The notes: a model not told the origin generated them from the sequence alone. 64,000 bases of DNA from Candidatus Bathyarchaeia archaeon (GCA_049512075.1 JBEKXL010000002.1:64001-128000); one strand, 5' to 3'. Counted from the stretch's first letter, positions 1-47,131 are shown. Numbers and translations: made by a program.

Positions 1-94
1 AGCTAGTTAGACAATCACTAGCCATTCCTTCCCCTCTTAAGCGCACGCGCTCTTATCCAACGTTTTTCCAACGTATAGCGCGCACTAGAACAGG

Positions 95-817
95 TTAGGG
101 GTATTGTTGTCCATAGTGTTTTGCTAGTAGGGATAGGTCTGAGAGGCCGACTTTGCCGTCGCCGTTTATGTCCGCGTTGGCGTTCCACTTTGGACTGTCT
201 GGTGTGGTGCCGTAGGCTTTTGCGAGGATGGATAGATCAGACAGGCTGACTTTGAAGTCGCTTTTGATGTCGCCTGAAATTGTTACCGTTACAGTGCCCG
301 TGTAAGTGAAGTTGTTGGCTGCTTCATTGACTCCGTTTGGCTCGCAATAGGCACTCAGTGTGTAGTTGCCATAGGCGCAGTTTGAAGTGTTTCCACCACA
401 AACGAGGTTAACTGAAGATCCATTCAACAAGTTGAAAACATTGGTGTTGTTCAGAGTTGTTGCGTTAGCAGACAGAGTCAGCGTAACGTTTTCAGGGTTG
501 TCTCCAGCGTTGTTGATCGTAACGTTCATTGGAATTGGGTAACCTTGGCCAACTACGGTTTTGGAAGCTGTAAAACTTGCTACACAAGGCGCAGTAAGAT
601 TGACATTCTGACCTGCATCTATTTGCGAAGTCAAGACATCAGAGATTGAGCAGCCTTGCTGAGTCGTACTGAAACAGGTGACGGTGGCATTCAACACATT
701 GTCTCCAGCACTTATTGACAATCCTGAACTCGAAGGTGTGAGGGTGTAATTGAGGTAGCCTTGAGTTGTCGATGCATTCAAAAAGTACGTATATCCAACA
801 ATCTGACCAGATGCGTA
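95..817 (-). pseudogene. 5'-truncated surface protein: CARDB/Ig-like domain plus C-terminal dockerin-like domain
   Basis: C-terminal duplicated Ca-binding dockerin motifs (GDIKSDFKVSLSDL...ADINGDGKVGLSDL). The frame stays open upstream of 781 (YASGQIVGYTYF) up to the GC linker at 816-828. No signal peptide or plausible start. Confidence 0.75.
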
Positions 818-826
818 GCGCGCGCG

Positions 827-1792
827 CTGGAGAAAGGTTGCTTCGTTGTAAGGGACAAAGAACAGAATGTTCAGCGTTATCCTTTGTTCGAGAACGAGAT
901 AGGGGAAGTAGTTCTGAAAAGCGGCAATCTTGTTTCAACAGGAGCCTTAGCTTCTCTGGGATTCTGGGACATAGACGTTCTGATCGTTACCCAGAGGGGT
1001 CAGCCTGTCGCCATGTTGAAAGGCCTAGACGATGATAGCCACGTTAAAACTCGAATCAGTCAATATGAAGCCTCTGAGAATGGCAAGAGAGCCTCCGTCG
1101 CTAAGAAGATAGTAGCCTCTAGAATTGAAACCGAGAACCTTGTCCTAAGAAAATATGGCTTGCGACAACATGACCTACTTACAGTTAAGAGGGCAATTGA
1201 AGAAGTCAATTCTGGAAACATAACAACCAAGCTCATGGCAATTGAAGGCCATTGTTCAAAACAATACTTCAAACAGGTCTTCCAACTATTCCCCAGTTTC
1301 ATTCGAGTTGAGAATCGTAAAACCTTCAAGGCCTACGATGGACTCAACAATCTTTTCAACCTTGCCTACACCGTTCTGAAATGGAAAGTTTACAGAGCCA
1401 TAGTTAGGGCGAAACTTGAACCGTATCTGGGCTTCTTGCATTCTGAACAGTTCGGTAAACCTTCTCTGGTCTGCGATCTGATGGAGCCATATAGGTGCCT
1501 AATTGACGATTTTGTTATCCAATATTGCCAGAGCCTGAAAAGGAAAGATTTTGGTATGAAACACGAAGACTACTCTTCCAACAGAAAGGGAGAAAGGGAA
1601 TATTTGAACAAGGGTTTGGCAAAAGACATGATGAACAAGCTGAACTTCTTCTTTGAATCAACAATTCAAATACCTAGAGTGAAGCACGGCAACAAACAAA
1701 CCGTGGAGACTCTGATTAACGAAGAAACAATGCTATTCGCCAGATACCTGAGAGACGAGAAACCGAATTGGCATCCAAGGATCGTCAAGTAA
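827..1792 (+). CDS. cas1: Solo Cas1 endonuclease/integrase, probably missing its N-terminal ~15-20 residues
   Basis: Cas1 motifs MAIEG, NNLFNLAY, LEPYLGFLH, SLVCDLMEPYR (catalytic E/H/D-E retained). Similarity begins at EKGCFVV, immediately after the GC run; the ORF-track start at 761 overlaps the opposite gene. Confidence 0.85.
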   Translation: MEKGCFVVRDKEQNVQRYPLFENEIGEVVLKSGNLVSTGALASLGFWDIDVLIVTQRGQPVAMLKGLDDDSHVKTRISQYEASENGKRASVAKKIVASRIETENLVLRKYGLRQHDLLTVKRAIEEVNSGNITTKLMAIEGHCSKQYFKQVFQLFPSFIRVENRKTFKAYDGLNNLFNLAYTVLKWKVYRAIVRAKLEPYLGFLHSEQFGKPSLVCDLMEPYRCLIDDFVIQYCQSLKRKDFGMKHEDYSSNRKGEREYLNKGLAKDMMNKLNFFFESTIQIPRVKHGNKQTVETLINEETMLFARYLRDEKPNWHPRIVK

Positions 1793-1812
1793 GGCGCTAG
1801 GGACGAAATGGT

Positions 1813-2547
1813 CTACACAGTTTTCTTTTTCATCCACAGAAGCCCGATTATCATCCACACAGTAAAAGGTCTTTTACTATGCGTTCCTAACGCAAACCAT
1901 GTGTCATATTTCTCTTTCATGTTGTGATAGCACATTTCGGTTACTTTCTGTTTTGCAGTCTCCTTGTTCGGATAGTTGTTCCAAAGTACATGCGCCCCCC
2001 AGTCGAAGCATTCCATATAATGGGGATGCCTCTGACAAACTTCACAGGGTTCTTCGCAGTTCCATTTATAGAAAAGACCAACATTGCCATAAGGCTGCTT
2101 CCGGAAAACTCTGCCATTCAAGGTTAGCTGGACCACTTGCTTCTTACGTTCAATGATATCAAATCCGACGATCTGTGGTTTTACAAGGACGAGTGATCGT
2201 TTCTCGCTGATTGGCACGTCCAGCGACTTCTCGGACAAATCAACAAGAAAACGCCTTCGCTCTTCCCTGTCAGTTAGCTTCTTGCCCGATTGGATGATGG
2301 AGAAAGGTTCTATTTTTCTGCTTTCAATTCGCGGATCGCGATCGGGTTCTGTGGTCCTTACTTTAATAAAATCCCAACGGTGTATTTTTCTCGCAACACT
2401 ACCCAAACGCATCGGATAAAGGCGCCTCCATTCCTTTTTCTCATTTACACCGGCTGTGCAAACAAGGTAAGACCCATGTTTACCGCTCCAATTCGGGGCA
2501 GCTTCCACAAGTACCAGGACTGATTCATCTTGATAAACCGTAGGAAT
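1813..2547 (-). CDS. Uncharacterised protein with VCTAG...WRRLYP motif (OB-fold-like family often seen in defence loci)
   Basis: Motifs LVEAAP-x6-YLVCTAGV-x5-WRRLYP and C-terminal FALGTH...WMIIGL. The frame is open from 2547. Confidence 0.6.
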   Translation of the reverse strand: MPTVYQDESVLVLVEAAPNWSGKHGSYLVCTAGVNEKKEWRRLYPMRLGSVARKIHRWDFIKVRTTEPDRDPRIESRKIEPFSIIQSGKKLTDREERRRFLVDLSEKSLDVPISEKRSLVLVKPQIVGFDIIERKKQVVQLTLNGRVFRKQPYGNVGLFYKWNCEEPCEVCQRHPHYMECFDWGAHVLWNNYPNKETAKQKVTEMCYHNMKEKYDTWFALGTHSKRPFTVWMIIGLLWMKKKTV

Positions 2548-11229: not shown

Positions 11230-11395
11230 TAGCGCGCTAGCGTGTTCCTAAATTCCCTTTTCTGGGCGTGACGAGTTGGTTCATGTCCTACAGACGATAC
11301 TTCTCGCATCAATAGTCACACGGTCATCCACGAACCAAGCGAGCCTATAACAAAAACCAGCTCGCGAATGAATTTAGGAACAGGCATGCGCGCTA
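11230..11395. mobile_element. 166-bp MITE-like element with 26-bp imperfect terminal inverted repeats
   Basis: TAGCGCGCTAGCGTGTTCCTAAATTC (11230-11255) matches the reverse complement of 11370-11395 (TAGCGCGCATGCCTGTTCCTAAATTC) at 23/26; no ORF inside. Confidence 0.55.
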
Positions 11396-11554
11396 GACAG
11401 CGGATTCTTCGACAATCTAGTAACCACTGACGACTTGAACGGCATAGACAACGACAAGGTGATCAGCATCATTCAGGACATCAAGAGCGATAGTCTGAAG
11501 GTTTCAAAAAGCGACAAATTCTCGAAACATCACTATGAGCTCTGCACAAATTAA
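11396..11554 (+). pseudogene. Orphan 3' gene fragment (52 codons)
   Basis: Protein-like open frame DSGFFDNLVTTDDLNG...ELCTN* begins at GCGCGCTAG; in-frame stop at 11375 and no start codon before the fragment. Confidence 0.35.
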
Positions 11555-11602
11555 GGGTCGAAACTCGCCCTAGTCAACCGCCTGAAACGCCTAGCGCGCG
11601 CA

Positions 11603-15510: not shown

Positions 15511-15678
15511 CAAATTCTTAATCCACCACTCTCTTACACATACACTCACTCAGCGCGCACAGAAAGAGTCTCTAAGGCCAGCTAGGGCAGTAAAGTATCG
15601 AAAAGTAGTGCCTAAATATATATATGCTTGTAGCTTAAGAATGGCTCTGTAGTTAGTCAGTTGCAGGTTGGCTTGCAC

Positions 15679-16930: not shown

Positions 16931-16944
16931 CGGTCATCTCCTCC

Positions 16945-32461: not shown

Positions 32462-32485
32462 ACAGGAACGAGGTTCTCTGCCATT

Positions 32486-34132
32486 TTGCTTGCTACGTTG
32501 CTGCTGGGATCATGTTTTGTCTTTTCCTCGGTGCGCGCTGCTCAGAGTGGGCCCTTGCTAGGTGTCTATCCCGATTTTGATTTTTCAAAATCAGCTGATT
32601 ACTGGTCCAATCTAGCCAGCAGCATAGGAGGCGGCAATGGGTTGATCGACTTGACCGTTGCCGAGGCAACAAATGAAAGCATCGTGATACTGCCTTTCCC
32701 CTTCGAGCCAACTGGTTATCTGGAAAGTTCCAGTCAGACAGATCTGGTTGAACCTTATCTTGACAGGTTCGAATCTGACGGCCTCAAGGTAATTCTTTCA
32801 ATCCAACCCTTAATGTCAGATGTGACAGAGCTCATAGACATCGTTCTCTCAAGGTTTGGCCACCACTCAAACATTCTTGGGGTAAACGTTGACCTGGAAT
32901 GGAAGCAAAGTGGAACTCCTAACTACGTTAGCAACAGAGAGCGAGATCTGTGGCTTAACGAGACAAAGAGCAAGAGATCTGACCTCAAACTGTTTCTCAC
33001 CTATTACAAAGACTACACCCATTTCCCACAAGACACAACCGATCTCGTGGTAATGTTTGACGGAGAGGGAGACACGCAAACCAATCTTCTCAACAAATTT
33101 GAGCAGATTGCAAGCCATTATGATTCGGTAGGCATTTATACAGGTTATTCCTCAAGTGTTCCTCCAACCGCCTCTCTACAAAGAATACTAAGCGCGGTCC
33201 CGAAAACTCAATACATTATTCACGCGTCAGCTGTTTCCTCCGAGATGCCGACCCTCGTGTTTGAGATGGACGGAGTGCAAGTCGACTATCAGGAACACAC
33301 GACAATCAACTTGCTGGATCTTTGTCTCACAAAAAACATGCCTCTCGTATGCGGAGTCGTTCCACAAGGTCTTGACAACCTAAGTCTAGGCGGAGGTTAC
33401 TTGCCCAGCTACCTCAGAGATCTTCACCAAAATTACTTCGACATTTTCGAGATGGCTCAACTCGGCTACACAAACAACGATTCAGAAATACTCGCAGGCA
33501 AGACGTACCAAGAACAAAAAACGGTGATAGAAAAAGGACTTCAAATAATGAAATCCGTCGGAATCTCACCTACGACTTTTGTCCCGCCTTCAGGCTCAGC
33601 CGACGATACGACGCTCACAGTGGCAGAGGAACTTGGATTCAAGAACTTCGTCGATCTCTATGAAAACTTGTCATCTAGCAAACTCCTGATACTAGATTCA
33701 TGGGTCTCGCTCATTGATCAAACCGCAAACGGCACGAAACTGAAATCGCCAGAACAACTGATGGCAGAGATTGATCAGAAAGCCCCCGGTGATCTCACGA
33801 TCATCGAATATCAGATTCAGGATTTCGTCAACAACTCCCGAACAAAAATGACGGCGCTATCTAAAATAATAGATTCTTTGATTTCAAGTGAGAAATACGT
33901 ATTCATGACGGAGAGACAGTATCAAGAGACTCTCGGCTACAATTCCACATCAAACCCGGATGGCACGACGCCGTCGCCGACACTTCCAGAGTGGGAGATT
34001 CTTCTCGCTTTAGGAACTTCAGTAACTATTGCGGTCACTATTCTTTTAGCAAGAAAAACTCGCGGCCTGAAGAAATTGGGCCTCAGCAGGTCACGAAATA
34101 GAAAAAAATCAAGAGCGCGCGCCGCAAACTAA
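32486..34132 (+). CDS. Secreted TIM-barrel/DUF2334 deacetylase-like protein with C-terminal membrane anchor
   Basis: Signal peptide, TFVPP motif, P/T-rich linker, LPEW + TM + basic tail. Confidence 0.7.
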   Translation: MLATLLLGSCFVFSSVRAAQSGPLLGVYPDFDFSKSADYWSNLASSIGGGNGLIDLTVAEATNESIVILPFPFEPTGYLESSSQTDLVEPYLDRFESDGLKVILSIQPLMSDVTELIDIVLSRFGHHSNILGVNVDLEWKQSGTPNYVSNRERDLWLNETKSKRSDLKLFLTYYKDYTHFPQDTTDLVVMFDGEGDTQTNLLNKFEQIASHYDSVGIYTGYSSSVPPTASLQRILSAVPKTQYIIHASAVSSEMPTLVFEMDGVQVDYQEHTTINLLDLCLTKNMPLVCGVVPQGLDNLSLGGGYLPSYLRDLHQNYFDIFEMAQLGYTNNDSEILAGKTYQEQKTVIEKGLQIMKSVGISPTTFVPPSGSADDTTLTVAEELGFKNFVDLYENLSSSKLLILDSWVSLIDQTANGTKLKSPEQLMAEIDQKAPGDLTIIEYQIQDFVNNSRTKMTALSKIIDSLISSEKYVFMTERQYQETLGYNSTSNPDGTTPSPTLPEWEILLALGTSVTIAVTILLARKTRGLKKLGLSRSRNRKKSRARAAN

Positions 34133-34150
34133 CCCTCATACTTATTCTCT

Positions 34151-34250
34151 GAGCGCGCGCGGGCTTCAATTTGTTACGTTTAATGTTTCTTCCAACATTC
34201 TGAGAAGTGCTTCAGAGAGTCTTACTGTTACGTTTTGAATGGTGAAAGAA
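34151..34250. repeat. Dispersed ~100-bp repeat, copy B
   Basis: GAGCGCGCGCG followed by ATTTGTTACGTTTAATGTTTCTTCCAACATTC...TACTGTTACGTTTTG. Confidence 0.85.
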
Positions 34251-34379
34251 ACTGGGCGAGAGCCAGACACTTACCGATTTCTGAGGTTTTCGTGCATGAT
34301 TGGAAACTGTGAAGGGCCTTGCAGCGCCCGCTGAGCATGTTTTTTAAGCTTTCCAACGATCTTGTAAGAAGGGATAATA

Positions 34380-35966
34380 GTGTACCAAGTCCCTTGGAAG
34401 GAATACTCAGAAGAGGAAATCCAACAAACGCTGTCTTACCTCTTCAAGTGTAAGGGCTATAATGTTTACAATGCTCACAAGGCAGACAGACGCGGCGAAA
34501 TGGGAGCAGATCTAGAATGCACAAGACCCGCTGAAGCCGAGAAAATTCTGGTTAGCGTCAAAAAGAAACCCCAACAAAAAGACATCCTTCAACTTGAAAC
34601 CTTGGCAAAGAGAGACGCCAAGACAAAAATATACGTATACGTCGAGGAACCTTCTGCATCATTCAAGGAAGCAATGAGCAAGAAATCGGAGATTAGCTTC
34701 TGGGACTCTGAGAAACTGACTTCAGAGACTTTTAGAACAGACTTACGTTTCTATCTTTTTCTCATAATTGAGAACAATATCGAAAGAACTAGTTATCGAA
34801 TAACATTCTCTTTCTGCAAATTGTATTTTGATCTAGAAAAGGGTAAGATGAAGATTCAAGAACCCGCGGAAGGAGACGTCGAAATGATGAACCTCCTCTG
34901 GAACGCAAAAGATAGAAGCGCGAGCCTACACAAATCTCTCAGAACACTCCAAGAAATCTACGAGAACACTTACTTAACCTCAGTCGATTACAGGGAAACA
35001 GAGTCAATCGTGAACGGATTCCTAAAGGGACTGTTCAATCTACACATAAACTCCTTGAAACCCCTCGAAATTCTTTTCAAAGAATTCATGACTAAGTATC
35101 CGAATAACTTCGCGCAGTTCTGCCTTCAAACCAAGGATCGTTCTAATTGGGTATTCTTCTTCACACATTTCCCTGAACTTCTTCCAGGCAACATAATCAA
35201 ATCTTTCGAAACCGAGGAAAAGGAAGCTGCAAAACTGCGAAAATTCTTCGACAAGAGTGGAGCCACTCCCACTCCTCCAGAAACTCTGGGTGAGATTTTG
35301 GCGGACATTTCACGAATCCTCGCTAACGGCGCCTATTGGTTAGAAGACGTTGTTGACGACCTTCACAGTATCGCTTTTTTTGGAAAATGGGAGAAAATGA
35401 GGGAAAAGACCCCCAAATGGCTGCGTCTCTGGGAAAATGAACGTGGACTCGGGTATCAATTTGAACTTGATCAAAAGAAAACCACAGATAAAGAAACATT
35501 GCCAAAGATGAGTGAACAGAAGCCATCAAGACAACCTCCAAGAAAATCACTTGTTCATTCAAAAGGGAAGCGTTGCTTCGTGCTGATGCCTTTCAAAGCA
35601 AATTTCCGCAGATTGTATGAGAACCATATTAGGCCTGTACTTGAAAACAACGGCTTCAAGGTCATGAAATCTGATGATATCTACACACCCACAGTTATCA
35701 CAGACGACATTAAGACCTACATAGGAAGCTCCGACCTGGTGCTAGCAGATGTTACGAACAAGAACCCGAACGTCCTGTATGAGCTGGGCCTCGCTCATGC
35801 GATCGGAAAAGAAACAATCATAATAACGCAAAACGAAGAAGACATCCCTTCTGACTTCAGACATTTGCGTTATTTCGAGTACGACGATGACGAAGAAGGC
35901 TGGAAATCGCTGAGAGAATGTCTTGACAAGGTGACGAGTTCAACAAAGACTCTTGGAAAACAATAA
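34380..35966 (+). CDS. Mrr-like restriction endonuclease domain + helical region + nucleoside-deoxyribosyltransferase/TIR-like domain
   Basis: N-terminal GEMGADL...VSVKK (Mrr_cat-like); C-terminal CFVLMPF...ADVTNKNPNVLYELGLAHA. Confidence 0.7.
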   Translation: MYQVPWKEYSEEEIQQTLSYLFKCKGYNVYNAHKADRRGEMGADLECTRPAEAEKILVSVKKKPQQKDILQLETLAKRDAKTKIYVYVEEPSASFKEAMSKKSEISFWDSEKLTSETFRTDLRFYLFLIIENNIERTSYRITFSFCKLYFDLEKGKMKIQEPAEGDVEMMNLLWNAKDRSASLHKSLRTLQEIYENTYLTSVDYRETESIVNGFLKGLFNLHINSLKPLEILFKEFMTKYPNNFAQFCLQTKDRSNWVFFFTHFPELLPGNIIKSFETEEKEAAKLRKFFDKSGATPTPPETLGEILADISRILANGAYWLEDVVDDLHSIAFFGKWEKMREKTPKWLRLWENERGLGYQFELDQKKTTDKETLPKMSEQKPSRQPPRKSLVHSKGKRCFVLMPFKANFRRLYENHIRPVLENNGFKVMKSDDIYTPTVITDDIKTYIGSSDLVLADVTNKNPNVLYELGLAHAIGKETIIITQNEEDIPSDFRHLRYFEYDDDEEGWKSLRECLDKVTSSTKTLGKQ

Positions 35967-36123
35967 CCCTTGATTCGCATATGGTTTTGGGTTGAAATGA
36001 TCAGCAAATAGTGAGTTAGCGCACGCTCGGAGTGACAAGCTAACCACGGCAGCTCTGCATGAAACCATAGCTCGCGCCCTTCAGGTGAGCGATTTTACCT
36101 ATTCGGCAAAACCTATGCGATCT

Positions 36124-37599
36124 TTATTTCTTCGGCGGATGTTTTGCGTTGAACTTATCTTTTGAGAGGAGTTTTAGGCCATGTTTGACCTGGACAGAAT
36201 TCAAAGCATGCTTGACCCCTAGTAGATACATAAGAGGCAGATTCTCCCCTTCTTCATCGATTACTTTGTATATCTGTTCCTCACTCGACCAACCTTCTTT
36301 TGTAGCCATTCTATCGAATCTCTTTTCCATATGACCGATCATCTTTTTGAACTTCGGCTCAAGTAGTGCATGCCACATCGAAGCGAGATCTTGAACATTC
36401 TGTTTAAATGGTTTCTCTGTTTTCATTTGTAGTAGATTGTCTCTCGTCCGCTTCAGTATTTGGTTTGAAATGCCCTCGAAATCAGCCTCACGCGTGTCTA
36501 TATCAAGAGCTAACATCATTTCTTTGATCTGATCGATCGTTCCTTTCCGACACTTTCCTTTGTCTTGGTGGGAAAAGCAATTGTCGCAGTTAGTGACATA
36601 ATATTCCTCCCCAAAGGGTCCCTTCTTCTCAAAACGGATAACCAAGTTTTTTTCGCCTAGGCTTTTCAACGTTTTTGAAATGGTAGATTTGTCCATTGCT
36701 GTGAAGCTGGCAATTTCAGTAACAGAAAGACTCATATTATCTAACAATCTTAGGCATACTTTAGAAGCCTGGCCTGCCTGTAACCGTGTAGATGAGTCTA
36801 TCTCATGGATTAGCCTTTGAGGGCCGTATACATCGGTAGGCAATTGCCATTGATCTCTTGTCTTTCCAAATCGAAGCCTTTTTAGAAATCTTTCAACGTT
36901 TGCCGTATCGAAAGAGTATACTTGGTCAATTATCTCAAATGTGTCGATTTGATTCTTCTTAGATTTGGCAATCGCAGAAACCGCGTATACAAGTTTCTCA
37001 TATGCATCCTCTGTTATCGATGGGGGTCTATGAGGCAATCGTACCTTGTTCGTGATCTTCCATTTTCCATTATCATGCCCCAACAATCTAACATAATGAC
37101 CCTTTGTGGACAAAACCAGTTTGTCTACAACCTCGGCCATTTCGCTCTGTGGCGGAACTAAGACTTTGGCCACATCTTTACTGGCAAATGCATCTTTGCT
37201 GGCAAGTGAAGAATGCCCTCCCTCCATAACATAGTAAACTGCCCAGCGTATGGCTTTTTCAACATTCGTTTGGACTCCCTCCGTAAAATCGAAGAACATT
37301 TCGAAGTCTTCGCTCTTCCTCAATGTGCGATTTTCATTTCTTACCAATAATCCAGAACCCACAAGAAGATCAACTGCTTGTGGCAGAATCCTCAGCAACC
37401 TTTGCTGCTGGACATAATACTTGTTGATGGAATCGGTGTCCCCTGTCTCACTTGAGAGTGCCCCCTTGATCGTCCGCTCAGAGAAAGACTCGGAATCAAC
37501 TTGAGCGATTTCTTTTAACATATCATTGTAGATACCAAGAGCAAGCCAGGGCGGCACTGTCCTCAGGGTTTTAGTCTTCCAATCTTCCCATATCTGCAT
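36124..37599 (-). CDS. Multi-winged-helix DNA-binding protein with Cys cluster
   Basis: LSVTEIASFTAMDKSTISKTLKSLGEKNLV (MarR/TrmB-like HTH); CDNC...C. Confidence 0.6.
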   Translation of the reverse strand: MQIWEDWKTKTLRTVPPWLALGIYNDMLKEIAQVDSESFSERTIKGALSSETGDTDSINKYYVQQQRLLRILPQAVDLLVGSGLLVRNENRTLRKSEDFEMFFDFTEGVQTNVEKAIRWAVYYVMEGGHSSLASKDAFASKDVAKVLVPPQSEMAEVVDKLVLSTKGHYVRLLGHDNGKWKITNKVRLPHRPPSITEDAYEKLVYAVSAIAKSKKNQIDTFEIIDQVYSFDTANVERFLKRLRFGKTRDQWQLPTDVYGPQRLIHEIDSSTRLQAGQASKVCLRLLDNMSLSVTEIASFTAMDKSTISKTLKSLGEKNLVIRFEKKGPFGEEYYVTNCDNCFSHQDKGKCRKGTIDQIKEMMLALDIDTREADFEGISNQILKRTRDNLLQMKTEKPFKQNVQDLASMWHALLEPKFKKMIGHMEKRFDRMATKEGWSSEEQIYKVIDEEGENLPLMYLLGVKHALNSVQVKHGLKLLSKDKFNAKHPPKK

Positions 37600-37617
37600 A
37601 GTGTCAATATTCTCCTA

Positions 37618-37723
37618 GTTGACAAAGAACATCATCTATCAACTAGTTGATATTACGCTCTATTAAATGTTCCAGTTGATTGCCGCTCTATTAGAGGCAT
37701 CCTGTTGATTTCTAGCTCTATTG
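37618..37723. promoter_or_regulatory. Phased direct repeats (GTTGAT-N4-5-GCTCTATT, 29-bp period) plus 16-bp palindrome; candidate operator or iteron array
   Basis: GTTGA at 37618, 37646, 37675, 37704; TATCAACTAGTTGATA at 37637-37652. Confidence 0.65.
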
Positions 37724-37786
37724 AATCTAAAAAAACGTTTTTCTGCCTCCGATCTAGCTATTGTTTGAGAACAGCGAGGTGTAGAT

Positions 37787-38032
37787 ATGAAATGCAAAAA
37801 GTCTGTCAAAACCTCCACCATGGACACTGTGCAAAAAATGGTCTCAACTGTGAAGTGGATCAGAAATGATTTCCTGAGGTTTTTATTGTTGACAGTAATC
37901 GTGATTGTTTCCGGTAGCGGGGGCGTAGCATACGCTTATGGCTGTAGGCTGGGAATAGTCTTGCTAATCGCAATCATGCTTTTTGTTCTTGCCGCCCTTT
38001 ACATTTTCAATAACTCCAAACGAGAATACTAA
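37787..38032 (+). CDS. Small membrane protein
   Basis: Two hydrophobic helices; GAGGT precedes the ATG. Confidence 0.45.
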   Translation: MKCKKSVKTSTMDTVQKMVSTVKWIRNDFLRFLLLTVIVIVSGSGGVAYAYGCRLGIVLLIAIMLFVLAALYIFNNSKREY

Positions 38033-38126
38033 AATAATTACGGTATTGATTTTTGTCTGAGCTATGTAAAAGTAGGAATACGGCCTTTCTGCCCACACGT
38101 GCGAAGGGGGAAGGGACTGAAACGGT

Positions 38127-40816
38127 TCAGTAGTTCGAACCGCCAATTATCATTTTGAGGCAATCACAATAGGCGGTGACCGCACGGCAATTAACAGTCT
38201 TTGACAATCCGAAGCTGACTCCGTCGAGTTGTGCGGCCGCGGGCCAGTCATATCCGTATGCTTGTGGTCCGACAACTTCAGAAGGACCTCCTCCAACGTA
38301 GCCTATCTGCAACCAGAAATCTGGTATCTGCTGCCATAGGAGTATTGGCGGACGTTGCTCATGCTTGTTCCTGCGTCAAGTTTGCCGAAAGTCCCTGGAA
38401 TTTGTGCACTGACCACGTAGTTGCAGTATATACTGTAGGCACGCGTTTTGAAACCAGAATACGTGCAGGGATTGGCTGGAAAGTTCGTGAGGCTTGTAGT
38501 GCCGTAGATTGCTTGACTTGTGGTGGCGGTACTGTATGCGATTCGAAGGGCTTTGCCCGATGCTATAGCATCAGCAACTAGCCAGTAATAGTTGTTCTTG
38601 ATGAGTTGTGGAGTTGTGGACAAGGCAACTGTTATCCAACCAGAGTATCCAGCCGCGACAGTTGTGGCTCCTTGGCTTAGGAGGGTCGTTGGGACGCCAG
38701 AATTGTCGTTGTATATGGCGACCTCTAAAGCTATGCTTAGTCCGTTGATTTCTTCGACGTAGAGAGCTAGGCTCTGGGCAGTTCCATATTCCAGCATCTG
38801 GTACCTGCTTCCGTAAAAGTATGAGCATAGATTACTCCTGCTGCTGCCAATGTCGACCTTGCCGAATTTTGGGTAAGACTGTTCAGTTGTGAAGCCCCAA
38901 CTGTAAGCGGATGGCATGTTCTGACCTTTCAGATTCATTGCGCCAGATGATATGGTGACTGTGTAGGATGTTTCATAAACCAGGGGGGAATTTGGCGTGA
39001 ATGTCATAACAGCTCCGTCGGGGCTCCAAGTGAACAAGCCAGGAACAGATGGGTTTATGCTAAACGCGTTTTGAACAGAAATCTGATTCATGGCTTCAGT
39101 GAAGGTAACCTGTACTTTTGCAGTTAAAGCGACATTCTGAGCATTTGAATTTGGAACTTGGTTGAGAACGTAAGGTGGAATATGTTCATTGACGAAGTAA
39201 TTGCAGCAAATACTGTACGCGCGGGCGTTGAACCCAGAAGAGACACAGGGATTGGTTGGGAAACTCGCGAAACTTGTCGTGCTGTAAAAAGCTTGATTCG
39301 TTGTCCCTGCGCTATAAGCGATTCTAAGCGATTTGCCAGAGGCAATTGCGTTAGCAACCAGCCAATAGTAGTTGCCTGGTAGCAGGTTTGGATGTGTTGA
39401 GAGTGTGACAGTTACCCAGTTTCGGTAGCCTGCGGGAATATTAGTTGTTCCTTGGGCTAAGAGAGTGCTCGGTTTGCCCGCGTTGTCGTTGTATATTGCC
39501 ACTTTCAGAGGTCTGTTTTCGCCGTTCATTTCCTCAACGTAGAGAGATATGCTTTGAGCGAAGCAGTCTTCTAGAGCTTGGTATTTGCTGCCGTAGGTGT
39601 ACGTGGCGAGGTTGCTTCTGCTAGCTCCAACGTCGATTTTCCCAAAGTGAGGCGGCATTAGAGGATAATGGTCTATGCTAACGTCATAGACAGTGTAGGG
39701 AGTGTCGCCAATTCCGTCTGGACCTATCACGGTCTGCTGGGGCCATTGGTATAGGTCAGTTCCACCATAATTACTCCAATAGTTGCCACCAATTGGATAA
39801 CTAGAGTTCCAGTCTATAACGTGTAATCCTTCAACATCTTCTGCGGGAACGGTAGCTTGAACAACATTGTTGATGAATCTATTGTGGTAGAAGAGCATAT
39901 TTATGGAAACATATGTTGAGACGTCGAGGTTGACCCCGTAGTTGTTGTCTTCCAGCGTATTGTTGTAGAATGTTCCGCCTATCCAATAGTCGCGTACATT
40001 AGAATAAATGGCGTAAAAGTCGTGCCAAAAGCAATTCCCACTGACTTTTAGATTTGAACAGGTTTGTCCAACATACAAGCCTATTGTACTAAGGTATATT
40101 CTGTTGTTGGTCACTTCCGCCGCTATCTCTGCCGTCTCTGGCACGCCACCGAGACTCAATGCGGTGTCACATCTTTCAAATAAATTCCCAGTGATGTTCT
40201 GGGTTCCTCCCGCAATAAATATGCCCGACTCTTTCAGATAATTGTCCATAATGGTGACAGAAACGGTGCCGGTAGTGCCAGAGATTCCTACTAGACCGTT
40301 TTCTACTGTATTGTTTACGAGAGTGTAGGGACCAGGTAATATCCAGTCATCTGGTCCGCCTGGAATGAACCCTAACTCTATAGACGCGTTCCTTACTAGG
40401 TTGTTTTTGATAACAGTATTCTGTCCGCCATCGTCGATTATCGAACCGTTCTGGATAGTGAAACCGATAATTTGAACGTTAATCGCCTCCGCATGCTCTT
40501 TTATCATTCTTACCCGAAACGTGTTTCCTGTCTTTCTTCCGTCCACTATAGCGTTTTGGTTTTCAGCGATTAGTGTGAGGTCAAGTTTTCCAGTAAGAGT
40601 CACTTCTTCGTAGTAGGTTCCTTGCTTCACGAGAATGGTGTCTCCATCGCCTGCAGCATTGACTGCTTCTTGTATTGTGTGGAAGTCTGCTGGTCCATTG
40701 TCATCTACAATCCAAGTCTTAACAGCCTTAGATGGCGGAACATATGCAGCTAAAGTCAAAATTCCTACCAAAATCACCATTACTAACAGCTTAGAAAATG
40801 ATTCTCCAATCCTCAC
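38127..40816 (-). pseudogene. Secreted beta-helix (NosD/CASH) + Ig-like (Big_5) + repeated beta-sandwich surface protein, frameshifted near its 3' end
   Basis: Signal peptide, ADFHTIQEAV, GGNYWSNY...DGIGDTPY, VTFTEAMN. The third FGKxDxG repeat breaks after YGSRYQ, and the tail continues in another frame (38127-38312). Confidence 0.7.
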
Positions 40817-40911
40817 AAATTCTCTCTCCGGTAGCGCGCGTGGTATACTAGTAGTTCACTCAGGGGGATAAGATTTATGGAACCGTCTTCTATGTCACTC
40901 TCTTACGCGCG

Positions 40912-40929
40912 TGTTATCTCGTAGATAAC
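40912..40929. repeat. Quasi-palindrome TGTTATCTCGTAGATAAC, copy 1
   Basis: 16/17 identical to 42551-42567. Confidence 0.7.
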
Positions 40930-40975
40930 CCCCAGCATACGCTATGCAGTAACCTAAAGTAGAAAGAACAGCATA

Positions 40976-42532
40976 ATGTTTGGTGGATTTTGCAGAAGTC
41001 TGAAAACTATGGGAACGTGCACTTCGGTGACCTCGACTAAATTCATTGTACTATCCGTTTGCTTGCTGATGCTGACATTGAATATTGAAATCTCTGCAAC
41101 AATCGAAACCAGCTATGCCGCGCCTAACGAAAATGTGAACGTCACTGACATGGGATTTGGAATAAACTATCTCTCGACCCACTATCACTACGAAACTCAT
41201 TACCTCTTGAATGAAACGATTGAAAGAGATTTTGAACTGTTCAATAGCCATGGCCTTAAATATGTCAACTTGGTTGCTGTTTGGAAATATTTGGAACCGA
41301 GCCTTGGCTATTACAACTATACGGCACTCAACGATCTAAAAAGAGTGTGTAACTATGCCTTACAGTATGGTCTTTCAGTTATCATAGATTTTCACACGAG
41401 TGTGAAGAAAACCAGTGATGGCTACTGGACCATGCCAGATTGGCTTTCTCCCCGCTGCTTTGAAACCGTGTTTAATAATGCTACTGCAAGGGGGGCATGG
41501 CTGGATTTCCTTGGAAATTGCACTGCTTACCTAGACAGTGAAGAAAGCATATACAGTTGGCACATGATGAATGAACCAGCGATAGGGGATTGGGCGTGCA
41601 ATGTTACAGTTGATGAATTTGTTGAACTCTGGGCTGAAATGAAAAATACGATTCGGGCGCAATCGGCAAAACCGATTTCAATAAGATTTGGAGCGAAAGC
41701 CATAAGCGATGATTTTGGACTTGACCCGAGAATATACGATTTGTGCGATTACGTGTCTTTGAACTGGTATGAAGAAAATTGTAGCCGCTATATCCTCGAA
41801 GAAAACGTTAGGAACATCTCTCAGCATAAGCCAGTGATGATCAGCGAATTCGGATACAAGACAGACGACGACCAGCTTCAGGCAATTGCATACAGCGACT
41901 ATATTCATTTGTTCAGGTCTTTAGGCATCAAAGACTGCATTGCCTGGTACTGGAGAGCAGACAACGATAGGGGAGACGACCCTCCTCAAGCAGGCAAAGG
42001 GTATAATTTGGCAAAAAACCTTCAGGGGGAACCTAGGCCCGCATTCCTTCTGATGGAGAATGTCCCCCCAGAAATCAACAATGTATCTCAGAGCCGTTCT
42101 GCAGATAACGTCGGGCCTAATCGTGAAGTCAGAGTTAATGCGTCAGTCACAGATGCGTCCGGCGTAGGATCGGTGGTTCTGAATTATACAGTCAACGGCA
42201 CCGTGCAAATTTCTATTAACATGACAAGCATTGAACAAGACAGCTGGAATTGCGCTATCCCTGCCTTTTCGTGTGGTACGAATGTTTCCTATGTGATAGT
42301 TGCACATGACAAGGCTGGCAACGTTGCTACATCAGAAGAATATCGGTATGAAGTGGGACTCTTGCTTGCCATTTTAGCAAACGCTTATGGTTCACACTGC
42401 GCCAACTACCATTACCAAGAAGAACCAGCCTCGCCAAATTGGAACCCCAACGCGGACCTGAACAATGATGGCATAGTGCGCCTTCAAGATCTTGTCCTTC
42501 TGGCTGTACGATACAGGCAAGACGACCCCTAA
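40976..42532 (+). CDS. Clan GH-A (GH5/GH42-like) glycoside hydrolase with Ig-like and partial dockerin-like domain
   Basis: IIDFH, MMNEP acid/base, ISEFG nucleophile; C-terminal NADLNNDGIVRLQDL. Confidence 0.82.
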   Translation: MFGGFCRSLKTMGTCTSVTSTKFIVLSVCLLMLTLNIEISATIETSYAAPNENVNVTDMGFGINYLSTHYHYETHYLLNETIERDFELFNSHGLKYVNLVAVWKYLEPSLGYYNYTALNDLKRVCNYALQYGLSVIIDFHTSVKKTSDGYWTMPDWLSPRCFETVFNNATARGAWLDFLGNCTAYLDSEESIYSWHMMNEPAIGDWACNVTVDEFVELWAEMKNTIRAQSAKPISIRFGAKAISDDFGLDPRIYDLCDYVSLNWYEENCSRYILEENVRNISQHKPVMISEFGYKTDDDQLQAIAYSDYIHLFRSLGIKDCIAWYWRADNDRGDDPPQAGKGYNLAKNLQGEPRPAFLLMENVPPEINNVSQSRSADNVGPNREVRVNASVTDASGVGSVVLNYTVNGTVQISINMTSIEQDSWNCAIPAFSCGTNVSYVIVAHDKAGNVATSEEYRYEVGLLLAILANAYGSHCANYHYQEEPASPNWNPNADLNNDGIVRLQDLVLLAVRYRQDDP

Positions 42533-42550
42533 CCCCTTATCGCGCTTTGA

Positions 42551-42567
42551 TGTTATCACGTAGATAA
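42551..42567. repeat. Quasi-palindrome TGTTATCACGTAGATAA, copy 2
   Basis: Lies just after the GH stop codon and is preceded by CGCGC. Confidence 0.7.
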
Positions 42568-42581
42568 TCTAAAGGTTATGA

Positions 42582-43055
42582 TCAAGTGTCTCCTCTATAT
42601 ACATCTGGCTCTGTATATCTTTTGCCCGCATCAGGTGGAATATAGTTTCTGCTTCTGCTACTGCCACTGCCGGAATGCTTTAGATTTTCTTGTCTGGCTT
42701 GCTCTATTTGACGTTTCTCCATTATACGTCTTGGAAGGCAATTCTTGCGGAAATTGCGATAAGTCTGAAGACAAACTTCTTTTGGAATCTTCTCTCTGTT
42801 GCAGCACCATTGTTCTCCTGAAAAAGCATGATATTTGCATTTTGGAGCATCTGGATCCTGTGGAAGCTCCTCTTTATTCTCTGGTTTGAGAAGGTTGTTC
42901 ATCTCTTTTGCATGGAAATACCAGTTCCAAAAGGTGATAAACTGCTCTTTTTGATTTCCTCCATCAAAAGTCTTCAGCTCTTTTTCAAGCTGTGTCATAA
43001 GCTTTGACGGAATCCAAACTTCGAAAAGTCGATTCTTCTTTTTGAAATCAGACAC
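42582..43055 (-). CDS. Hypothetical Cys-rich protein, possibly of mobile-element origin
   Basis: RHH-like start (FEVWIPSKLMTQL) and CKYH...CC...C...C cluster; start at GTG 43055 is a guess. Confidence 0.4.
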   Translation of the reverse strand: MSDFKKKNRLFEVWIPSKLMTQLEKELKTFDGGNQKEQFITFWNWYFHAKEMNNLLKPENKEELPQDPDAPKCKYHAFSGEQWCCNREKIPKEVCLQTYRNFRKNCLPRRIMEKRQIEQARQENLKHSGSGSSRSRNYIPPDAGKRYTEPDVYRGDT

Positions 43056-43664
43056 AGGATCGTCAGTATTAGTATTGTGTAAGAGTTCAAGTCCTTTTCC
43101 CAGGCATCGAAAAGCTAGAAAAGAGCTTCTTTTCGGAGGTTCGGAACATCGCTCATCCTCCTTTTTGGCTTTGGAGCTTGATTCAGCAGCGTAAAAAGCA
43201 TGGGAAAAATCGAAAAGCTCAAAATGAGGAAAAACGTCGTGCACATCGAGCAGATTTTGTTCCTTTTTGGGAATGGAGCATAATGCTCTTCGAAAAACTG
43301 TGAGAAAACAGTCAGTTGAAAACCTTGATAACTTTGTTATAATAAAAAACAAGGAATAGTCCATCCGATTTCCAGAAATTCGACTCATTCCTTAGAGAAC
43401 TGGTTTTTGTGGACAACTGCAAAAAAGGGCCAGAAAACACCATCAGTTATATTGTCTTTTTGAAAATTCTCGAAAAAGCTGACTGTTACGTCATTGTTAC
43501 GCCGAAATGTTACAAAAGCATGGTATTCTCCGTATATTCCATGTTTGCGCGCGCTTGAACTTCTTTAGCGCTGCGCGCGTACTGTTCGCATGGAACTGGT
43601 TAACCCGCGACAGACGCTGGCAAAACGTGTTTGTTCTTCATAAAAGAAGGGGAGAAAGGAGGGC

Positions 43665-45662: not shown

Positions 45663-45716
45663 TGCTATGTCTTCATTGGATTTTATCCTAAGCCTTAGTA
45701 CATCGTGTTCCAGAAG

Positions 45717-46163
45717 CTAGTACGGTTTCAGAGACCATATGCGGAGGGCTTCAAACCAGAAGATTGACGTTACAATGGCTCCGAACGTGAGGATGAACAG
45801 GTTTTCACGCGTGAACCCCTGCATCAACACGAACACGTAGAAAAGATAGAAGGAGGTTGAGAAGAGCGCGTAGAAAAAGTACCTCGGAAACAAGAGCCTC
45901 CCCAGCTTGACAAAATGGCGAAGCACTCCAATCTTGACTTCGCTGGTTAACGAATAATTGCCGCCGACCTCCTCCTTCTTGACCAATCCCAACTGCCGAA
46001 GCTGTTCAAGATGATGTTGCGCCACGCTCGGGCTGCTGAAACGCAGCGTTTTCTGAACTTCACGAACGCTCATAGCGCGACCATTCCTGAGAAGAAGCCA
46101 GTACACGTTCCAATCCTTTCCACGAAGCGCGTACTCAAAGACAGCGTCATCTTCAGCGTTCAA
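45717..46163 (-). CDS. Winged-HTH protein with two C-terminal TMs
   Basis: VREVQKTLRFSSPSVAQHHL; LFPRYFFY. Confidence 0.8.
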   Translation of the reverse strand: MNAEDDAVFEYALRGKDWNVYWLLLRNGRAMSVREVQKTLRFSSPSVAQHHLEQLRQLGLVKKEEVGGNYSLTSEVKIGVLRHFVKLGRLLFPRYFFYALFSTSFYLFYVFVLMQGFTRENLFILTFGAIVTSIFWFEALRIWSLKPY

Positions 46164-46220
46164 AGAACAACATGCCTCTCCACCATAGTACCTACCCAGT
46201 GTTGCTTATAATTCCAGTTA

Positions 46221-46555
46221 TTAGAACGGTAGACGGAGAGTATCTGCAATTGCTCTTTCGACGTCTTTTGCGGCTTTGTTTCCGTCTATTATTCTCCAGT
46301 TGCCTGTCGACACCAAAGAAAGGGTTTTTCTCCTGACCCGTTTAAGGTTCTCCAAGCTTTCGAACACTTCCATCGTGCTGCTCGTTCGTAGTATTCTTCT
46401 ATCCGCTTCTGGACGTACGTCGAATAAGAACATGTAACCTGATGCTGGAACGATGGAGGCGAGAAGTCGTAGCCAATCTTGTACAACGGTGACGGCAGAT
46501 AGGCGGTCTCGAGCGGGTATCGAACAAAAATCATGTTGTCGTATCTTCTCTAAGG
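46221..46555 (-). pseudogene. Thymidylate-kinase-like gene remnant
   Basis: FVRY...TAYLPSPL in one frame joins FDVRPE...RRI...FESLENLKRVR...IIDGNK in another; in-frame TAG; P-loop half missing. Confidence 0.55.
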
Positions 46556-47131
46556 AAGGTTTCCAATCATTATGTGCATAAACTTCGCGCTCCACCACGT
46601 AAGACAATTCCCACACGCCCCCCAAATTTTGGCAGCATCAAGCCGCCATCTCACGTCGCCCTCCACCAGAAACCTCTCGCCAACGAAACACCACACAGCC
46701 CCAACCTCGACCCTCAACACCCAACCCATCCTGCACCGCCAACGGAACAAACAGGAGATTTGAACGCCGCTTCCGTCCTGGGCCTTGAACGTTGCAGGCT
46801 CGACGAATCGCAACAACCGACAAATGCCTTTCCATTACTTTCCAGTACTAAAAATACCTTTTCTCGCCTTTCCCAGCCTTTTCAGGACGCGGTCCAAGCT
46901 TAACCCAAGGCCCACGGTTGGAAAGAAACCTAAAACAGGCTTTTCAAAATCAAGTTGCACCGCGGATTTACAACGAGACTTCTGGCCGTCCACGCTAGAG
47001 AGCGTGCGCTCTTCCGTGAAACATGAAGCGTCTTATCCATCTCTCCTGACACAACGATTAAGGCCAGCACGCAGGCGTAGCTGAAAAACATTAGGAGAAC
47101 GTTTGAAAAGACATCTTCAAAAAGCAACGTT

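Follow-up and report, generated by a model that had tools for sequence, protein, structure and literature searches.

Are the short runs of alternating G and C that lie among the accessory genes of this DNA the cores of a recombination site, or are they scars written when DNA ends are joined? By the window we mean the whole stretch of DNA analysed, 64,000 nucleotides from an uncultured peat archaeon of the Bathyarchaeia whose genome of 2.7 Mb is 99.8% complete (G000); its sister species is G002. The initial annotation leaned towards scars, and the deletions sealed by a run, the solo run insertions and the captured gene fragment described below argue in the same direction. The runs are probably scars, a constant filler written at DNA joints during end joining in this lineage; it is as though a fixed linker served to reunite broken DNA, along a so far undescribed pathway.

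Alternating G/C runs in the window and the genome

The eight runs of at least 8 nt that had been picked out by eye were all exactly placed, with lengths of 10, 8, 9, 8, 9, 8, 9 and 8 nt, and the window holds no others (Table 1). All eight fall in sequence without a collinear G002 homologue (29.0 kb), and the core blocks (35.0 kb) have none. The claim that housekeeping genes are free of runs thus holds as a count of zero in the core, but mostly expresses a general intergenic bias: over the intergenic bases of the core part alone, 2.95 runs were expected and 0 seen (P(0) = 0.05). The window is not a hotspot for runs, with 8 per 64 kb versus 13.6 expected from the genome mean. The placing of runs at the edges of island and core was borne out, with G002 homology blocks ending 33 nt from the run at 15553, 2 nt from that at 30177 and 37 nt from that at 43573. 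At the first of these edges, the end of the matching G002 block (G2C5 191285-191292) directly bears GCGCGCGC. At the second, asnS homology with all four congeners ends 2-6 nt before the run at 30177, and at the third, the run at 43547 is followed by a 7-nt run at 43573-43579, with G002 homology back from 43616. The ~95-nt repeat found between 30177 and 30334 has eight copies, six of which begin 3-4 nt after a run.

Table 1. Runs, run-bounded segments and strain-variable sites in the window
Feature	Position	Context
Run GCGCGCGCGC (10 nt)	818..827	Start of homology between the genome's two full-length Cas1 paralogues
~165-nt repeat	11230..11397	GCGCGC bounds both sides; 95-97% identical to at least four G002 copies
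Run GCGCGCGC (8 nt)	11594..11601	Abuts the stop end of the minus-strand gene 11603-14767 (1054-aa STAND-like ATPase)
Run CGCGCGCGC (9 nt)	15056..15064	Gene-poor stretch, defence-like island on one side and core block on the other
GCGCGC (6 nt)	15553..15558	33 nt ahead of the start of the core block (eIF5A)
Extra GCGCGCGC in related strains, missing here	28796..28797	Convergent acs/asnS spacer
Island, 13,379 nt: 'a' + GCGCGCGC ... GCGCGCGC	30176..43554	Missing whole in contigs of two other metagenome studies
Run GCGCGCGC (8 nt)	30177..30184	Left terminal run of the 13.4-kb island
Run GCGCGCGCG (9 nt)	30334..30342	With 30177, brackets a 149-nt segment holding the ~95-nt repeat
Run GCGCGCGC (8 nt)	34115..34122	In the last codons of ORF 32486-34132; first of a pair bracketing 30 nt
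Run GCGCGCGCG (9 nt)	34153..34161	Second copy of the ~95-nt repeat 4 nt later
5,004-nt stretch replaced by GCGCGCGCT in other strains	34661..39664	No run at either end here
GCGCGCG (7 nt)	40834..40840	With CGCGCG at 40906-40911, in the spacer of divergent NosD/Big_5 and GH5 genes
Run GCGCGCGC (8 nt)	43547..43554	Right terminal run of the island

Across the 2.725 Mb counted, the genome carries 581 alternating G/C runs of at least 8 nt, and GCGCGCGC is its top 8-mer, with 1292 counts on both strands versus 89 expected from an order-3 Markov background and 60 from order-1, a genome-wide excess of ~14x over the order-3 expectation. Run lengths (6 nt, 669; 7, 195; 8, 284; 9, 186; 10, 105; 11, 3; 12, 2; 13, 1) cluster at 8-10 nt and then cease, with just six runs longer than 10 nt; the other five dinucleotide alternations decay geometrically with length. 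The enrichment is confined to the G-first phase of the alternation, maximal GCGCGCGC numbering 250 versus 34 for CGCGCGCG, and (GC)5 numbering 90 versus 15 for (CG)5. The length of the GC run does vary, as had been remarked, but less than claimed, since it has a phase-specific 8-mer core, is less often a 10-mer and is rarely longer.

Immediate A..T flanks occur at 46-56% in the G phase only and surround 169 of the 390 even-length runs, extending the palindrome one base past the run and no further. Complementary letters in flank columns 2-10 are found for 21-29% of even-length runs and a palindrome arm reaches beyond ±1 in 54 of 390, both at chance level, so that the CTAG-type (TAG/CTA) flanks originally described are not a general feature. 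When the flanks of all 581 runs were summed, no 7-mer stood at more than 42 positions within 80 nt of the runs, which have no common cis sequence in their flanks. By gene calls that are crude and were made for the present analysis, 501 of the 581 runs (86%) are intergenic.

Runs at junctions between genomes, strains and paralogues

The runs mark junctions at which DNA was deleted, inserted or rearranged, and their positions and the polarity of several of these events are matters of observation. For 257 of 492 intergenic runs, at least one flank has a homologue in G002, and 133 of these runs (52%) sit at an indel, a one-sided end of homology or a split locus relative to G002, versus 156 of 870 control positions (18%) drawn from 2000 random intergenic ones (OR 4.9, p = 2.6e-25). 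Within G000, 103 runs lie at most 12 nt from the end of a paralogous HSP and two lie inside one.

About ten clean cases were found in which a run stands in place of a segment; three were polarised by outgroups, and two more were attempted without yielding a polarity. At C1:89124, ~1046 nt lost in G000 are retained in G002 and G003; at C2:167086, 606 nt lost in G000 are contiguous in G004 and G003; and at C5:18734, 725 nt lost in G000 are contiguous in G004. The ancestral ends of all three deletions lack a run. Comparison with the sister species also revealed run-only insertions or small replacements, four in G000 and three to four in G002. Pure run insertions measure 8-13 nt, and same-length or near-length replacements were also seen (gcactttc by GCGCGCGC; 9 nt by 8 nt). 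When DNA is inserted into a pre-existing run, a run remains on both sides (8 becoming 9+7, 10 becoming 6+10, and 10 becoming 6+6). At C35:3316-3416, 101 nt between two runs are 98% identical to the interior of a P-type ATPase gene at C29, where the source region has no runs, and there are four further captured-fragment cases.

Variant joints in the window were read from Logan contigs of other metagenome studies, not from raw reads. At the island-free joint (30175->43555), both terminal runs are gone, no extra letters are present and the empty site has no run; its depth is 25 in X7 and 15.5 in X10, and X10 record 1 is contiguous across it. No homologue of the island was found in the examined part of G002. 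The 5,004-nt deletion has one end within an Mrr_cat gene (34380-35966) and the other within the NosD/Big_5 gene (38303-40816), with a joint depth of 18.8 in X10 (side 255) and 2.4 in X7, and the solo GCGCGCGC at 28796 has depths of 40.4/40.4 in X7 and 19.4/19.4 in X10. Contigs of X7 and X10 also terminate or begin at 34156-34164.

Runs do not accompany every change. Read by eye, the 25 collinear gaps that separate G000 and G002 include ~15 without a run. A run is also missing from the deletion that G004 itself has at C1:89 kb, and from the break at the ancestral neighbour of asnS, which now lies at C3:143.8 kb. The description of runs at almost every module boundary was thus overstated and, as many indels in the same genomes lack a run, the run-writing pathway is not the only one.

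Probable end-joining scars and competing readings

In the mechanism that we propose, breakage, deletion or the capture of stray or foreign DNA would each be followed by the joining of two ends through a filler whose core is 5'-GCGCGCGC-3', less often (GC)5, often with 1-3 A/T-rich letters on either side. A simple re-joining or deletion would give a single joint with a single run, and a captured fragment, whether island or cassette, would carry a run at both ends; the next break or insertion would favour existing runs. Scars within genes would mostly be removed by selection, while intergenic runs would build up and then decay neutrally. As to the chemistry, we infer either that the same short tail is placed on both 3' ends and the tails anneal, or that ligation inserts a linker, an 8-10-mer annealed to itself. 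These two routes are judged likeliest because the filler core is self-complementary.

Counting against the scar model, certain segments between runs exist in several copies that share the same boundaries and run lengths, among them a 270-nt unit with ~8 copies and runs of 9 nt on the left and 8 nt on the right, the window's ~165-nt repeat, and a 412-nt element that has terminal inverted repeats and lies inside a run in G002, although this last one is a passenger case. Such segments look like defined units that move, and the scar model then needs an extra assumption, namely that DNA is cut at runs and afterwards captured again.

Insertions at end-joining junctions comprise TdT N-nucleotides, polymerase-theta templated insertions and additions by the bacterial and archaeal LigD PolDom with Ku. 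Like these, the runs are letters from neither parent at a joint, found together with deletions and fragment capture, and G000 encodes a Ku/LigD operon. They differ in being fixed, phase-specific, self-complementary and 8 or 10 nt long, neither random nor locally templated, and in that neither Ku/LigD nor PolX tracks the motif. In eukaryotes, break repair captures organelle and retro-element DNA at yeast and plant junctions with microhomology or random filler; the gene interior pasted into an intergenic site at C35:3316-3416 is similar, but the runs provide a constant linker on both sides. Junction insertions are treated in the available portions of PMC3898472, PMC5042397, PMC3333859 and PMC11724360.

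It is unlikely that the run is instead the minimal end of cut-and-paste mobile DNA, with a transposase reading (GC)4-5 and solo runs as footprints or abutted ends. Such an enzyme would account for the copying of run-bounded units with fixed boundaries, as in the 270-nt unit, for the G002 copies of the window's ~165-nt repeat, for the gain or loss of the island exactly from run to run and for the run left on each side of insertions into existing runs, and the patchy class distribution, even within a genus, suits a horizontally moving determinant. However, neither the island nor the 270-nt copies have a target-site duplication or an inverted repeat past the run, on which grounds an insertion sequence or MITE was rejected for both, and there is no conserved subterminal sequence. 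In addition, a solo-run deletion between run-free parental ends would need three steps (insertion, adjacent deletion and excision), and the 101-nt gene-interior fragment between runs is not an element. No transposase is associated with the runs among those checked, both named by eye: a run lies near one of three IS6-like copies (16 nt past the end) and within ~260 nt of two of three IS200-type copies. REP/BIME sequences (RAYT transposases) are 20-40-nt imperfect hairpin palindromes with conserved flanking bases. They too number in the hundreds as short extragenic palindromes, often in close pairs, whereas the runs are 8-10 nt long with no palindrome past ±1 and no common flank.

Integron-like crossover at the runs by a conservative site-specific recombinase, with circular cassettes re-entering at other runs, is very unlikely, although single genes or short segments are bracketed by runs, existing runs receive insertions and a palindromic core would fit a dimeric enzyme. 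The run-free empty site of the island already strains this reading, which moreover can neither make a run at deletion joints from run-free parents nor insert a solo run, and no recognition sequence extends past ±1. Integron attC sites are long, structured and conservatively recombined by IntI, and the empty site keeps one copy of the site. Cassette arrays and CALINs resemble the present case in their variable regions of genes or short segments, each bracketed by a repeated site, but differ from it in that the island's empty site has no run and runs appear at deletions.

We give very little credence to a functional intergenic signal that coincides with variable DNA, be it a protein-binding site, a Z-DNA former, a terminator or an insulator. 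The intergenic bias is strong and some runs abut stop codons, 20 of them lying within 5 nt of one, but run density is near-equal across spacer types (0.97 per kb for tandem, 0.69 for divergent and 0.90 for convergent ones), and distances to gene starts and stops are broadly spread. The sister species is identical at only 17 of 42 orthologous sites, runs arise in gene-destroying deletions, and an Rfam search of the window gave no match.

A HIP-like iterated palindrome, in which methylation-directed mismatch repair would convert near-matches to GCGCGCGC, is highly improbable. Such an origin has been proposed for the cyanobacterial HIP1, GCGATCGC. Elhai describes alternate HIPs, each with its own cognate methyltransferase, where a palindrome is frequent (PMC4390886). 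As presented in the portions of the papers available (PMC4390886, PMC5861425), HIPs are, like GCGCGCGC, lineage-specific octameric palindromes rich in GC and over-represented beyond any other word of their genome, and same-length replacements are also found here. HIP1, by the same portions, is linked to cognate methyltransferases, whereas the C5 DNA methyltransferase family PF00145, the one methylase class searched for, was above cut-off in none of the five genomes of the present genus. Furthermore, the runs are 86% intergenic and tied to indels and rearrangements, not point changes, and the comparison of G000 and G002 sites gives no sign of conservation.

An artefact of assembly, amplification or binning is barely credible: every genome involved is metagenome-assembled and the junctions are known from contigs, but runs are kept at orthologous sites in independent assemblies, G002 shows the same run-length histogram as G000, the excess follows lineages and not studies, the variant joints occur in contigs of two studies each, and contig ends lie near runs in 13 of 172 cases versus 10.7% expected, which is no enrichment.

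Candidate enzymes, spread and decay

The initial annotation had looked to a recombinase, primase, polymerase or ligase co-distributed with the motif, and the candidates tested do not track it. In G000, profile matches place Ku (1.3e-40), a LigD-PolDom (LigD_Prim-Pol, 3.8e-83) and a ligase/phosphoesterase (DNA_ligase_A_M and LigD_N) together in one operon at C16:5124-8191. Ku was found in 7 of 26 motif-rich versus 82 of 275 other genomes (OR 0.87, p = 0.83; kin genomes are not independent, so cross-genome p-values overstate the evidence). It was not found in the motif-bearing congeners G001 (77% complete) and G003 (93% complete) and is present in G010, a genome without the motif. Ku/LigD was rejected as the writer of the runs because its presence fails to follow the motif across genomes. 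PolX, reverse transcriptase (RVT_1) and Prim-Pol were absent or not co-distributed with the motif, and a search for an extra PriS copy found none. Homologues of the window Cas1 occur in 8 of 26 enriched versus 36 of 275 other genomes, while the strongly enriched family f26 has none among its 10 genomes; Cas1, too, does not co-distribute with the motif. A casposon has, besides Cas1, a polymerase of family B, terminal inverted repeats and a target duplication of 14-15 bp. In the window, ORF 761-1792 has its Cas1 domain from residue 23 onwards, and the match to the paralogue at C1:348849-349808 is confined to residues 22-341.

The motif excess is common to all five species of the genus (five species assemblies), and 26 of 301 genomes of the class are motif-rich, in a patchy distribution that is uneven even inside one genus. 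A hand count of 42 collinear, same-length sites in G000 and G002 gave 17 identical, 15 altered but still at least 6 nt, and 10 degenerate, and one-mismatch copies of AGCGCGCGCT number 409 versus 92 and 118 for two control words; together these sequence comparisons indicate that the runs decay neutrally. In the window, the 40834 and 40906 runs may be decayed or short members. Among the shorter relatives that had been listed, those at 1793 (GGCGCTAGG), 3631 and 42541 are trivial, while those at 41, 7562, 36016 and 47001 resemble one-mismatch decayed copies.

Form, position and distribution of alternating C/G runs

The assembly of the window's own genome (G000) measures 2.73 Mb in 86 contigs with 47.5% G+C, and the window, on contig C2, divides by Pfam content into islands and core blocks (see table). 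The initial annotation had located by eye eight maximal stretches of alternating C and G of 8 nt or more (hereafter runs); its coordinates are exact and the window holds no further run. The genome averages 13.6 runs per 64 kb, so the window's eight fall short of the mean. Searches of the window for RNAs gave no Rfam match at the gathering threshold and no tRNA, and a C/D-box sRNA considered by eye at 34115-34161 and 30168-30342 was dropped as the C box is missing.

Genome-wide, alternating C/G stretches number 669 at 6 nt, 195 at 7, 284 at 8, 186 at 9, 105 at 10, 3 at 11, 2 at 12 and 1 at 13, while every other dinucleotide alternation falls off geometrically with length. Counted against a Markov background, a check that had been suggested at the outset, the motif is far in excess: GCGCGCGC is the top 8-mer of the genome, occurring 1292 times (both strands) versus 89 expected under an order-3 and 60 under an order-1 model. 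The excess is phase-specific, with 250 maximal GCGCGCGC versus 34 CGCGCGCG and 90 (GC)5 versus 15 (CG)5, and the 9-mers are the 8-mer core lengthened by a chance neighbouring base. An A..T pair flanks 46% of the 8-mers and 56% of the 10-mers. As neither a palindromic extension nor a logo signal was found past ±1, the (C)TAG frame of the initial annotation reduces mostly to one base. No 7-mer is enriched in the run flanks, and this, with the flat logos, led us to reject one mobile element whose flanking sequence is conserved. Just one pure GC insertion was detected among paralogues.

According to a crude gene call made for this analysis (2500 genes, 78% coding), 501 of the 581 runs are intergenic, 8 lie at gene edges and 72 are coding, where 455 would be expected. 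Runs are about equally dense in tandem, divergent and convergent spacers, their distances from starts and stops vary widely, and run-bearing spacers are longer (median 381 nt versus 124 nt). Neighbouring runs lie 20-300 nt apart in 115 pairs versus about 27 expected, with heterogeneous content between them and no preferred spacing. On these grounds, run placement does not match that of promoters, terminators or a HIP1-like word.

The five species of the genus have 115, 29, 87, 69 and 98 genomic copies of AGCGCGCGCT, with controls at 2-6, whereas 26 further genomes from the same family and order have 0-9 copies. A survey of 301 class genomes at least 80% complete identified 26 as motif-rich (at least 10 copies and at least five times the control), from at least six families; families f35 and f26 are among the uniformly rich ones, and in the window's own family the motif is rich only in scattered genera or single species. 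The sister species (G002) also has a run-length histogram with the same cut-off as G000. From this distribution, the runs are a real, heritable and patchy feature. The motif-rich genus has genomes of 2.2-2.7 Mb (four genomes at least 93% complete) versus 0.9-2.0 Mb in most of the relatives searched.

Features with coordinates (positions are in the window unless a contig, C, is given)
Feature	Genome	Position	Details
Defence-like island	G000	1-15.5 kb	Dockerin protein, lone Cas1, ParB_N+ASCH, DUF2357+PD-(D/E)XK (adjoining a 696-aa protein without family), UvrD-type helicase (1006 aa), STAND-like ATPase (1054 aa)
Core block	G000	15.6-30.1 kb	eIF5A, Hsp20, PAC2, SRP54, Pus10, Rpb4, KsgA, P-type ATPase, acetyl-CoA synthetase, asnS
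Second island	G000	30.5-43.4 kb	GT2, DUF2334, Mrr-like protein, MarR-like protein, NosD/Big_5, GH5
Core resumes	G000	from 43.6 kb	
Lone Cas1	G000	761-1792	No other cas gene adjacent
Other Cas1 copies/fragments	G000	C1:348849-349808, C43:4-969, C1:361142-361339	
Polarised deletion	G000	C1:89124	About 1046 nt lost, found in G002 and G003
Polarised deletion	G000	C2:167086	606 nt lost, contiguous in G004 and G003
Polarised deletion	G000	C5:18734	725 nt lost, contiguous in G004
Second asnS 5' segment	G002	C5:164393-164581 (locus L005)	Repeats the final 180 nt of the region covering the upstream and 5' part of asnS
End-joining operon	G000	C16:5124-8191 (locus L137)	Complete, bacterial-type: LigD-PolDom, Ku, ligase/3'-phosphoesterase
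~160-nt repeat (examples)	G000	C13:8803-8965, C9:10789-10951, C14:3172-3325	Non-coding, about 40 places
~95-nt repeat	G000	30188-30284, 34166-34263	Two TGTTACGTTT boxes around a short hairpin
TGTTAC(G) boxes	G000	43470-43515	Clustered at right island end
412-nt element	G002	C1:16611-17036	About 35-nt terminal inverted repeats; copies in G001
Empty site of 412-nt element	G000	C14:8000-8009	GCGCGCGCGC
TATA-binding protein lookalikes (examples)	G000	C36:9530-10093, C21:1776-2336, C1:104874-105440	187 aa, seven paralogues, by eye
Alba-like protein (example)	G000	C32:5618-5905	95 aa, four paralogues, by eye

Runs at joints between related genomes

The initial annotation had proposed an alignment with close relatives, and in the sister species, whose core genes are about 95% identical to those of G000 and of which 1.57 Mb (68% of the genome) was fetched, runs were enriched at indel and rearrangement joints. 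Flanks of 150 nt from 492 intergenic G000 runs and 2000 random intergenic positions were compared by BLAST. Sites were collinear and of the same length for 8.5% of runs versus 27.3% of controls, longer in G002 for 6.3% versus 2.0%, homologous up to the site from one side only for 17.3% versus 5.1%, and joined from flanks at different loci for 1.8% versus 0.15%. When only sites with a homologue are counted, 133 of 257 runs were of junction type versus 156 of 870 controls (OR 4.9, p = 2.6e-25). Paralogous alignments within G000 have 103 runs at most 12 nt from an end and just 2 inside, and the opening 10 kb of contig C1 in G002 are a mosaic of 300-650-nt blocks matching different G000 contigs, with a run at 6 of the 11 joints inspected. 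Contig ends near runs are not enriched.

Runs had also been placed at island/core edges, and at three such edges they lie 33, 2 and 37 nt from the ends of G002 blocks. In the 1.57 Mb of G002 compared, the defence-like island has no collinear homologue. The asnS region is homologous to all four congeners up to 2-6 nt before run 30177, and all four lack a run at the matching site. The second asnS 5' segment in G002 ends exactly where the asnS homology block does and continues directly with CGCGCGCGC. That nearly every boundary carries a run was too broad a claim: many do, far from all. No run lies where the ancestral asnS neighbourhood was broken at C3:143.8 kb, nor in about 15 of 25 collinear gaps (collinear-gap and site-class tallies are hand counts from printed alignments). 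The 31 kb of housekeeping genes do lack runs as reported, but this becomes marginal after coding density is considered (2.95 expected, P = 0.05).

In about ten clean cases, a G000 run with 0-3 mostly A/T letters stands in place of 148-1785 nt of G002, and the replaced segments are ordinary sequence whose ends carry no run. Three of these are polarised as deletions (see table). Outgroups gave no polarity for C12:23002, C16:47157 and C16:27815, the congener G004 being too diverged at the last. At the locus of the 725-nt loss, the congener G003 has a separate, larger deletion of about 947 nt (C1:738901-738905 versus L109:2400-4050); this may be a hotspot where deletions recur. Window variants, read from contigs rather than raw reads, came from Logan contig sets. 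Contigs of two studies, neither of them the likely source, have GCGCGCGCT in place of 34661-39664, a stretch with end points inside the Mrr-like and the NosD/Big_5 genes. The segment 30176-43554 (13,379 nt) is missing without residue from X7 and X10, contig sets of two such studies, and the gap opens with the letter preceding the left run and closes with the final letter of the right one; 35-39 kb of the window lies outside X7/X10 contig cover and is not counted as absence.

Runs also appear by themselves, as 8-13 extra nt in G000 or G002 where the counterpart has nothing or a few different letters, and as GCGCGCGC inserted after 28796 in Logan contigs of related strains. The 101-nt segment C35:3316-3416, which has a run at either end, matches the interior of a P-type ATPase gene on C29 at 98% identity, and the gene is free of runs at the matching piece; four further cases of this kind were recorded. 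Where an existing run has received an insertion, a run remains on either side with a variable total (8 to 9+7, 8 to 4+4, 10 to 6+10 and 10 to 6+6), and the event at C16:38285 is better read as such an insertion than as a deletion. At 42 sites collinear with G002, 17 runs are identical, 15 are altered yet 6 nt or longer and 10 are degenerate, and one-mismatch copies of the motif are four-fold enriched.

A probable constant filler at DNA joints and its rivals

The simplest account of these observations, and one we consider fairly probable, is that, when DNA ends are joined in this lineage, a constant filler that is self-complementary is written into the joint. What we infer of the mechanism beyond the appearance of constant filler at joints is as follows. 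One joint would yield one run and a captured fragment two, and the A..T symmetry would be expected of two identically tailed ends or of a linker with matching ends. Purifying selection would purge 8-nt insertions from genes, producing the intergenic bias. Existing runs are favoured for later insertion and may be fragile or cut; run-bounded segments would then be released and recaptured, which would account for multi-copy units with fixed boundaries.

A conservative recombination site could not make a run where both parents have none, and it would leave a run at the empty site. A transposon would need three steps per deletion scar, and there is neither target duplication nor shared subterminal sequence, while the internal gene fragment between two runs would be unexplained. 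HIP-like conversion predicts neither the tie to indels nor the intergenic bias, and no C5 methylase was found in the five genomes of the genus.

A bolder form of the filler account, which we regard as rather doubtful, is that certain Bathyarchaeia possess a dedicated, undescribed end-joining route placing a (GC)4-5 oligonucleotide at every broken end, as an engine of gene shuffling. The self-complementary oligonucleotide would cap or bridge each break and might be self-propagating, with existing runs templating primase-length 5'-G...C-3' oligomers that would self-anneal and be ligated into new breaks. Foreign or stray DNA would be pasted into the chromosome by the same route, making it a main driver by which genes would be gained, lost and shuffled in these genomes, which are unusually large.

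The nearest known systems are end-joining junction insertions, HIP1, REP/BIME elements and integron cassettes, each of which fails a defining feature tested, and among the papers listed by searches of the freely accessible literature we found no description of the phenomenon. If the filler account is true, DNA-repair and gene-acquisition chemistry would have a readable signature, the same eight letters per joint, and deletions, insertions and captured genes could be counted from genomes of an abundant uncultured archaeal class. If the runs are scars, they may also explain the larger genomes of the motif-rich genus. An enzyme activity making or ligating a defined self-complementary oligomer at DNA ends would be implied, one without a described counterpart and a potential tool.

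Candidate enzymes and repeats near runs

The initial annotation had envisaged a recombinase, primase or ligase co-distributed with the motif; Ku, PolX, the reverse transcriptase, Prim-Pol and Cas1 all fail in this role. Ku, an evident suspect given the complete operon in G000, has no class-level association with the runs (7/26 motif-rich versus 82/275 other genomes). It is present in the motif-free genome G010, and searches of two motif-rich genomes, G003 (93% complete) and G001 (77% complete), did not find it. Its occurrence in 89 of 301 class genomes is well above our expectation for archaea. Prim-Pol (PF09250) occurs among five congeners only in G000, the reverse transcriptase RVT_1 (PF00078) in 0 of 31 genomes, and the PolX palm domain is absent from G000 and found mainly in the non-enriched family f24. 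PriS is single-copy in each congener, with no extra paralogue, and a third, LigD-type ATP-dependent ligase is confined to G000, G002, G004 and G010. Homologues of the window Cas1 gave a weak association (OR 2.95, p = 0.036, kin genomes not being independent), which we discount for this non-independence and for their absence from motif-rich family f26. Cas1 homologues in other class genomes are multi-copy with frequent stops; together with the several G000 copies and fragments, this suggests a casposon-like mobile family.

Among repeats, each copy of the ~160-nt repeat carries two copies of attacatctgacattacaa and accounts for the excess 8-mer ACATTACA; many of these repeats are not close to a GC run. 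Supposed truncated copies capped by runs were rejected, being this core repeat, which occurs without runs too. The ~95-nt repeat has eight genome copies, six of them beginning 3-4 nt past a run, and TGTTACG repeats at both island ends were rejected as a general flank signal, being confined to this family. The 412-nt element splits a GC run in G002, leaving GCGCGC on either side. The TATA-binding-like and Alba-like paralogues lie on 400-600-nt modules that are often run-bounded and recur across species at 85-98% identity.
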